This document shows, in pieces, positions 129 through 312 of a stretch of 1,326 nucleotides of DNA. The translations under genes and the position numbers were made by a program. The stretch is from Escherichia coli (GTDB lineage Bacteria > Pseudomonadota > Gammaproteobacteria > Enterobacterales > Enterobacteriaceae). The notes beneath the pieces were generated by a model. That model had not been told where the DNA came from. It did no database searches and saw nothing but the letters and a program-made list of their open reading frames with translations. The DNA lies in the NCBI RefSeq assembly GCF_003334255.1, contig NZ_QOWU01000163.1. One strand, written 5' to 3'. The stretch's first letter is position 1; each line of letters starts with the position of its first letter.

Positions 129-133
129 AGATT

Positions 134-139
134 TCTCCC
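134..139 (-). promoter_or_regulatory. Shine-Dalgarno / ribosome-binding site (GGGAGA) for stf
   Basis: Plus-strand 'tctccc' at 134..139 reads GGGAGA on the minus strand, followed by a 5-nt spacer (AATCT) and the stf ATG at 128..126. Confidence 0.6.
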
Positions 140-141
140 AT

Positions 142-175
142 AAAAAAAACCGCAGTACCGGTTACCCGGTCTGCG
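142..175 (-). terminator. Rho-independent terminator candidate between J and stf (minus-strand orientation)
   Basis: Plus 151..175 (cgcag-t-accgg-ttac-ccggt-ctgcg) forms a GC-rich stem of 10 bp with one bulged base. On the minus strand the loop reads GTAA (a GNRA-type tetraloop), and the stem is followed by one G and then a T8 tract (plus-strand a8 at 142..149). It lies downstream of the J stop and directly upstream of the stf RBS. Confidence 0.6.
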
Positions 176-210
176 ATCAGGGGTATAAATTGTGACTGGC
201 TGGTGTTAAA

Positions 211-234
211 GGGTGCCGTCAGTCAAAGGCACCC
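211..234. other. Perfect 7-bp inverted repeat (GGGTGCC ... GGCACCC) with a 10-nt loop in the J–stf spacer; function unknown
   Basis: Plus 211..217 'gggtgcc' and 228..234 'ggcaccc' are exact reverse complements. On the minus strand the stem is followed by TTTAAC, which is only a weak U-tract, so it may be a second weak terminator, an RNA stability element or a protein-binding palindrome. Confidence 0.35.
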
Positions 235-312
235 GTGGATAATGTACGATGTCCGGCTTTTGTCGTTTTCCGGCAATCACGAACAGATGGATGAAACCTC
301 ACTATCCACCTG

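Follow-up and report, generated by a model that had tools for sequence, protein, structure and literature searches.

Morons, a concept that is said to go back to Juhala and colleagues in 2000, are reportedly independently transcribed accessory genes that have their own promoter and terminator and are placed between the late genes of a phage. Late transcription in lambda begins at pR' and depends on antitermination by Q. Within the hok family, Pedersen and Gerdes are said to have reported in 1999 that hokA, hokC, hokE and other loci of Escherichia coli K-12 are inactivated by IS elements, point mutations and rearrangements. A long-distance stem of hok mRNAs, tac/fbi, has been published (PMC9841398), hokW-sokW of Sp5 is a toxin-antitoxin pair with which phage release was raised approximately two-fold (PMC8621323), and hok genes have been reported to be enriched in prophages (bioRxiv 10.1101/2025.08.07.668861). 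Our searches of the literature for hok in combination with prophage, tail fibre and lom, and for the PhiR12/mEp332 phages, found nothing relevant.

The DNA considered here, called the window below, is a stretch of 1,326 nucleotides of an E. coli contig (NZ_QOWU01000163.1), the minus strand of which carries the end of a J gene, a spacer and the beginning of an stf-like gene (Table 1). The J fragment comprises the last 337 codons of the gene and ends with a TGA codon at 315-313, the window holds the first 42 codons of the stf-like gene, and the spacer between them (312-129) is 184 bp long; the first-pass annotation had given this J stop, the stf start at 128 and the 184 bp exactly. The J frame of the window is 41% identical to the C-terminal region of lambda J (E 8e-75), with an identity that collapses in the last ~150 residues, and the J genes of the phage collection match only window ~1326-832, which is the upstream ~495 nt of the J fragment, at ~75%. 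The terminal ~150-170 codons of J (window 313-830, minus strand) are therefore a divergent and distinct allele, and this divergent end is a receptor-binding allele. On the other side of the spacer, the first 38 amino acids of the stf-like frame are 74% identical to lambda orf-401/Stf, and the Shine-Dalgarno and start region of stf is kept in all related loci, including the lom-bearing PhiR5_1, and weakly in lambda. A promoter-like sequence, TTGATA-17-GATAGT, was also seen at window 329-301 (minus strand), where it straddles the J stop and points to stf, with its -35 hexamer in the last J codons and its -10 hexamer in the spacer; this site is not significant alone, being one of two hits against 1.2 expected from shuffles.

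Table 1. Features of the 1,326-nt window, listed in the direction of transcription
Feature	Position	Strand	Basis
3' part of the tail-tip/host-specificity gene J	313..1326	-	ORF list; RefSeq name gpJ
J-proximal spacer, 31 bp, travelling with the J allele	282..312	-	Left alignments to 1720a-02 and LZSFT34 begin at 281/282
Putative decayed hok promoter region	235..281	-	Alignment to L005 3001-3040 that needs insertions of 5 and 2 nt between the hexamers
Perfect 7-bp hairpin: GGGTGCC 234-228, loop TTTGACTGAC 227-218, GGCACCC 217-211	211..234	-	-13.9 kcal/mol
Probable deletion junction, GACGGC	215..220	-	Overlap of both alignments on exactly 6 bases
3' trailer past the fold-back element (TTTAACACC...)	179..210	-	Common to hok-bearing spacers
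Intrinsic-terminator-like hairpin	142..178	-	Terminator scan hit; fold -20.9 kcal/mol
stf ribosome-binding site GGGAG 139-135 and ATG 128-126	126..139	-	Sequence
Beginning of the stf-like gene (N-terminal domain of a prophage tail fibre)	1..128	-	Likeness to lambda orf-401; RefSeq annotation

The spacer is non-coding. The longest open reading frames that touch it on the minus strand have 36 codons (TTG start, overlapping the J stop) and 24 codons (GTG start), and those of the plus strand that lie in it or overlap it encode 46, 58 and 64 amino acids; none of these five small ORFs belongs to an NCBIfam or PHROG family, bar one weak PHROG match. That match, of the 58-aa plus-strand ORF antisense to stf, was rejected as noise (E 0.067, no stretch above threshold). 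The Hok/Gef frame of ~50 aa, with its transmembrane helix and LCE...R...E.AAF motif, is absent from the ORFs of the window and present in relatives, and the window had no hit in an Rfam scan that admitted E values up to 1, so no signal of Sok/hok-leader (RF01794). In E. coli 2013C-3033 and in phage PhiR12_1, both read feature by feature, J is followed directly by the stf-like gene, which is named 'prophage tail fiber N-terminal domain-containing protein' or equivalent. The spacer is present in full in 29 complete genomes of E. coli and in the five PhiR12 phage records, and none of the rows listed for them has an annotated feature under it; the 184-bp (or 182-bp) spacer thus recurs without an annotated gene. 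The earlier statement that the spacer holds no ORF of meaningful length on the minus strand is borne out by the 36-aa maximum on the minus strand, the lack of annotation and the lack of a family match, and the small conserved gene that had been considered possible there was not found.

Using the spacer alone in a sensitive search, we recovered phage 1720a-02, with two matching pieces that lie ~330 bp apart, and ~40 further E. coli records that match the spacer partly, mostly in its stf-proximal half, at ~78%; hok-bearing E. coli genomes match spacer positions 93-183 at ~78%. The J-stf spacer is ~480-500 bp long in 1720a-02, IBS28, 2013C-3181 and SMBL and contains a 46-aa ORF, which in IBS28, 2013C-3181 and SMBL carries the RefSeq name 'Hok/Gef family protein' and is flanked by gpJ and the stf-like gene. 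The 46-aa ORF of 1720a-02 matches NCBIfam Hok models with an E value of 6e-9, although it does not reach their curated cut-offs, and its leader matches the full Rfam sok model RF01794 with an E value of 2e-9 and 51 bits, where the gathering score is 59. At least 80% of the hok-bearing spacer of 1720a-02 is found in 119 of 5,426 complete E. coli genomes. Position 1 of the Rfam sok model aligns to GGGUGCC of the 1720a-02 locus (L005), which, in view of the R1 sequence, is probably the hok mRNA 5' end; hexamer conservation and this model position are what place the putative hok promoter and transcription start throughout this analysis. The minimum free energy fold of the full 1720a-02 cassette RNA pairs its 5' end with its 3' end (z = -8), in agreement with the published tac/fbi stem (PMC9841398). 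It is plausible that these relatives with an intact cassette have working toxin-antitoxin modules.

A hok-type cassette (~77% identity) is also present after lom in VT2-Sakai, a short-tailed Stx phage, and after ogr in P2-like phages and prophages. The homology to VT2-Sakai and to the P2-like loci begins at the -35 region or just downstream and stops at or just short of GGCACCC. In all three contexts the cassettes read TTGCC(G/C), 17 nt, TA(C/A/G)A(G/T)T, 6 nt, GGGTGCCTTT..., with GGCACCC near the 3' end. In VT2-Sakai (L010 704-1880), a hokW-type cassette directly follows lom and the lom terminator abuts the hok -35 hexamer; the same hok cassette is found downstream of ogr in a P2-like prophage of E. 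coli LR-64-2 and in phage Chuche (L011 and L012, 1501-1890 in both). Its occurrence in VT2-Sakai, P2-like and J-stf settings indicates that one type of cassette has spread among at least three unrelated phage backbones. The modules lom and hok alternate at the lambda-type J-stf slot, and the VT2-Sakai arrangement makes them neighbours in a short-tailed Stx phage.

Comparison of the window with these cassettes makes it highly probable, in our opinion, that the spacer is the remnant of a hok/sok cassette, the middle of which was removed by one ~331-bp deletion that had a short direct repeat at either end. Two parts of the window can be aligned to 1720a-02, 281-215 to L005 3001-3060 and 220-100 to L005 3386-3499, and the GACGGC shared by the two alignments matches both GATGGC copies of 1720a-02 (L005 3055-3060 and L005 3386-3391). 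Since the two alignments meet at one repeat, 331 bp apart in L005, 331 bp are absent from the window, and this missing piece comprises the Sok region, mok and hok. The direct repeat at the junction is GA(T/C)GGC, of 6 bp, with the extended form GGCTGATGGC / GCCGGATGGC; the parental repeats are read from cassettes that are only ~80% identical to the left side of the remnant. Split local alignments, from which the junction was read as the MAFFT multiple alignment misplaced the left half of the window, gave the same junction against M1, M18 and LZSFT34. The left-hand homology has z = 13.8 for 1720a-02 and 15.2 for LZSFT34 (0 of 1000 shuffles as good), and for the 5' ends of the VT2-Sakai and P2-like cassettes 1 and 3 of 1000 shuffles were as good as the left part of the window; the right side of the gap is ~85-95% identical to intact cassettes of the same J-stf slot. 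The window is thus collinear with intact cassettes both to the left and to the right of one gap, and it has this homology in the same genomic place.

Read against the intact cassettes, the spacer from ~281 to ~150 appears to be almost entirely of hok-moron origin, and only ~31 bp at the J side and ~20 bp at the stf side would belong to the neighbouring modules; the J-proximal 31 bp (282-312) have no homology to the hok-bearing spacers. In the promoter region, a -35-like TTGCCG (276-271) and a -10-like TACATT (246-241) are 24 nt apart, compared with 17 in the cassettes, because of the 5-nt and 2-nt insertions between them, and this spacing should disable the hok promoter. A promoter scan reported no promoter-like site at 235-281, the hexamers scoring too low for a consensus scan. 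The hairpin that follows appears to be the hok mRNA 5' end (the tac side) fused to the 3' fold-back (the fbi side), so that the complementary ends are retained in the window, now as a local hairpin; the fused ends being naturally complementary, as in the tac/fbi stem, accounts for a perfect 7-bp stem. As the same end sequences are also present in the VT2-Sakai and P2-like cassettes, the arms of the hairpin belong to the cassette and not to the J-stf backbone. The terminator-like hairpin consists of a 13-bp stem with one bulge (178-148), a GUAA loop and 8 T (149-142), the first two of which close the stem; it is a G+C-rich stem-loop followed by a U-run, and is predicted to be an intrinsic (Rho-independent) terminator. 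Its stem is common to the hok-bearing loci. The close relative PhiR5_1, in which J, lom and stf follow each other, has only window 155-129 (the T-run and Shine-Dalgarno) in common with the spacer and a different stem before them, which indicates that the terminator stem came with the hok moron; the 142-178 hairpin is probably, judging from this comparison, the terminator of the former moron, now placed between J and stf. In the minimum free energy fold of the spacer RNA, GGUGGAUAGU (302-292, after the J stop) pairs with ACAUUAUCCAC (243-235, before the hairpin) and encloses the promoter remnant; the z of the whole 201-nt fold is -2.8, and this pairing may be due to chance.

The identical scar arrangement is carried by all of the E. 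coli genomes with this J end (29/29), and the scar allele was also found in five phages and in nine IMG/VR contigs (identity 267-271 of 271), three of which come from one genome. The PhiR12 phages differ only by two substitutions and by a GG/T run near the terminator that is 2 nt shorter. That all carriers have the same allele fits a single event inherited with the J allele, and this J allele was not found with an intact cassette among the 29 E. coli genomes and nine IMG/VR contigs. An identical J end and scar occur in several prophages of one genome, represented by three IMG/VR contigs (L017, L018 and L019, genome 643348545), and up to six places per E. coli genome match the J end and scar; such identical copies within a genome suggest tail-module exchange between co-resident prophages. 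Among the carriers, PhiR12_5 (L001 2484-6013) has J annotated as two CDS, 2484-5408 and 5486-6013, where PhiR12_1 has one gene of 3,531 nt, and this split could be an interrupted gene, a host-range variant or a sequencing error. In PhiR12_1 (L003 7776-10943), the tail fibre assembly gene, which lies downstream of stf, is interrupted by a two-gene IS made of a transposase and an ATP-binding helper. In E. coli 2013C-3033 (L002 8994-12241), the genes past stf and tfa are annotated as 'YadA C-terminal domain-containing protein' and then 'S6 family peptidase', and they may be virulence-type cargo at or beyond the end of the prophage.

Other J-hok-stf loci have also lost parts of the cassette. In M18 and LZSFT34, 103 bp are missing between CCGGATAGC, which lies within hok, and CCGGATGGC; this deletion takes away the end of hok and the 3' UTR, and its right-hand repeat is the same as that of the deletion in the window. 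LZSFT34 has a further 10-bp deletion between AAAAACC repeats, and M1 a 20-bp deletion between GGCCGGA repeats in the leader. As judged from these alignments, decay of the J-hok-stf slot appears to be recurrent, the deletions being independent and bounded by short repeats, and the window is the most complete collapse among the J-hok-stf loci compared. Inside the partly deleted cassettes of LZSFT34 (L009 2413-2478) and M18 (L024 1413-1478), RefSeq annotates a 21-aa 'hypothetical protein', which is probably a truncated hok frame and not a real gene.

The first-pass annotation had taken lom as the reference, noting that none is found between J and stf, and had proposed that the phage either never acquired a gene at this position or lost one, the spacer being a candidate insertion or deletion scar. 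There is indeed neither a lom reading frame nor lom similarity in the spacer, and the scar can be specified as a deletion scar with its junction within a 6-bp direct repeat, the GA(T/C)GGC being found where direct repeats had been proposed and residual lom-flanking sequence not being found; the choice of lom is what has to be corrected, as the lost module is hok/sok rather than lom. A phage once organised J-lom-stf like lambda, from which lom was deleted, would be in keeping with the presence of lom in the same slot of both lambda and PhiR5_1, and a lom-hok ancestor is conceivable because the two genes are adjacent in VT2-Sakai, yet the local alignment scores of the spacer against the lambda J-lom spacer, lom and the lom-stf spacer are all within what shuffled sequences give (scores at least as high in 198, 38 and 34 of 300 cases), the spacer cannot be aligned along the lambda intergenic sequences, and even PhiR5_1 aligns with it only at the T-run and Shine-Dalgarno, which makes the loss of lom extremely improbable as an origin of the spacer. 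The never-acquired half of the earlier proposal also has to be abandoned, and its lost half stands, because the window keeps the cassette promoter region and both mRNA ends. One could still argue that the hairpin and terminator are ancestral and that hok/sok was inserted elsewhere into the loop of the hairpin with duplication of a 6-bp target: the 6-bp repeat that flanks the missing segment in the occupied loci is also readable as a target-site duplication, and the scar is a single allele, so that polarity cannot be read from phylogeny. An inserted module would, however, bring its promoter and mRNA ends along rather than meet them at its target, and the window shares with the cassette its own promoter hexamers and the 5' and 3' ends of its mRNA, which are also found in the VT2-Sakai and P2-like contexts. 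The disrupted promoter spacer of the window and the further repeat-bounded deletions inside the cassette of other loci also speak against an empty site, and we know of no transposition machinery for hok/sok, which we count against insertion. A site that was never occupied is thus very unlikely, and the hairpin arms and the 47 bp of promoter region, both being parts of the cassette, argue for deletion.

It was also considered that the spacer could be functional itself, encoding a small protein or a ~93-nt small RNA that would begin where the hok mRNA once did (234) and end with the terminator (142). The remnant does have the outline of a bacterial small RNA, in which a hairpin at the 5' end is followed by a single-stranded stretch rich in A and U and by a terminator that ends in a U-tail, a -10-like TACATT lies 6 nt upstream of 234, and the sequence of the spacer is 98-100% conserved among carriers. 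Against this, the Rfam scan of the window was empty, there is no recognisable -35 at 16-18 nt and no extended -10, the promoter scan is empty at this place, the carriers are alike through recent common descent and not through selection, and the small ORFs have no annotation and no family match save the weak antisense one already mentioned. We accordingly regard a function of the spacer as very improbable. There is similarly little chance that the relic has been reused, its old hok start, fused tac/fbi hairpin, A/U-rich linker and terminator together giving a ~93-nt prophage small RNA, or else a cis-acting RNA element by which the ratio of J to stf expression is set; if this were true, a regulatory RNA would have arisen here from the collapse of a toxin-antitoxin module.

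For the preferred reading, a collapsed hok/sok cassette, we propose that a ~331-bp deletion took place between two short direct repeats, of which GGCTGATGGC belongs to the 5' leader and GCCGGATGGC immediately precedes the 3' fold-back element. The gene for the Sok antisense RNA, mok and the toxin frame of hok would all have been lost in this one event, and ~20 nt from the beginning of the hok mRNA would have been joined to ~10 nt from its end. In gene order, this would leave ~31 bp of the J allele, the promoter remnant, the fused mRNA ends, the 3' trailer, the terminator and the Shine-Dalgarno and start of stf. Joint loss of toxin and antitoxin would presumably avoid the killing expected from loss of the antitoxin alone. 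We infer that the remnant is now probably inert. During lytic growth, by analogy with lambda, the Q-antiterminated late transcript would read through both hairpins from J into stf, the translation of which would start from GGGAG-N6-ATG, and in the lysogen the terminator would stop stray transcription.

Hok loci that have decayed, slots for accessory genes downstream of J, and prophages that carry hok were all known before, and the spacer is a further example. It represents ordinary accessory-gene decay in a phage and leaves the understanding of phage biology unchanged. The comparison nevertheless describes the lambda-like J-stf junction as an accessory-gene slot that holds, in close relatives, lom, hok/sok, a partly deleted hok/sok or the shell of one, and it adds a clean example of the decay of prophage type I toxin-antitoxin cassettes by small deletions that are bounded by short repeats. 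The 3' fold-back element is where two independent deletions have an end point in common, and this shared end point and the tidy fusion of two mRNA ends into a hairpin are small curiosities. For annotators, relics made of such a hairpin plus a terminator could be recognised as hok/sok scars and not left as unexplained intergenic structure.

Compared with known systems, the remnant occupies the same slot as lambda lom, between J and stf, and has the moron layout in common with it, namely a promoter, a small cargo and a terminator abutting the stf ribosome-binding site; the former cargo of the remnant would have been a toxin-antitoxin module, whereas that of lambda lom is an Ail/Lom outer-membrane protein. 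With cassettes that are ~77% identical to the hokW type of hok/sok, the remnant has homology in three parts, namely the promoter region, the beginning of the mRNA and its 3' fold-back end, and the hairpin that is left represents the outer portion of the long-distance stem formed by tac and fbi (PMC9841398; PMC8621323). It differs from a working hok/sok in that the hok and mok frames and the Sok region are missing (~331 of roughly 390 bp) and in that its hexamers are 24 nt apart instead of 17, and it is therefore a relic and not a working member of the family. With the decayed hok loci of K-12 it shares the condition of a non-functional hok family locus that has been left in place. By contrast with these loci, it results from a clean internal deletion bounded by repeats that has left only the two mRNA ends, and it lies in a phage late operon, whereas the decayed hok loci of K-12 lie in the core chromosome.
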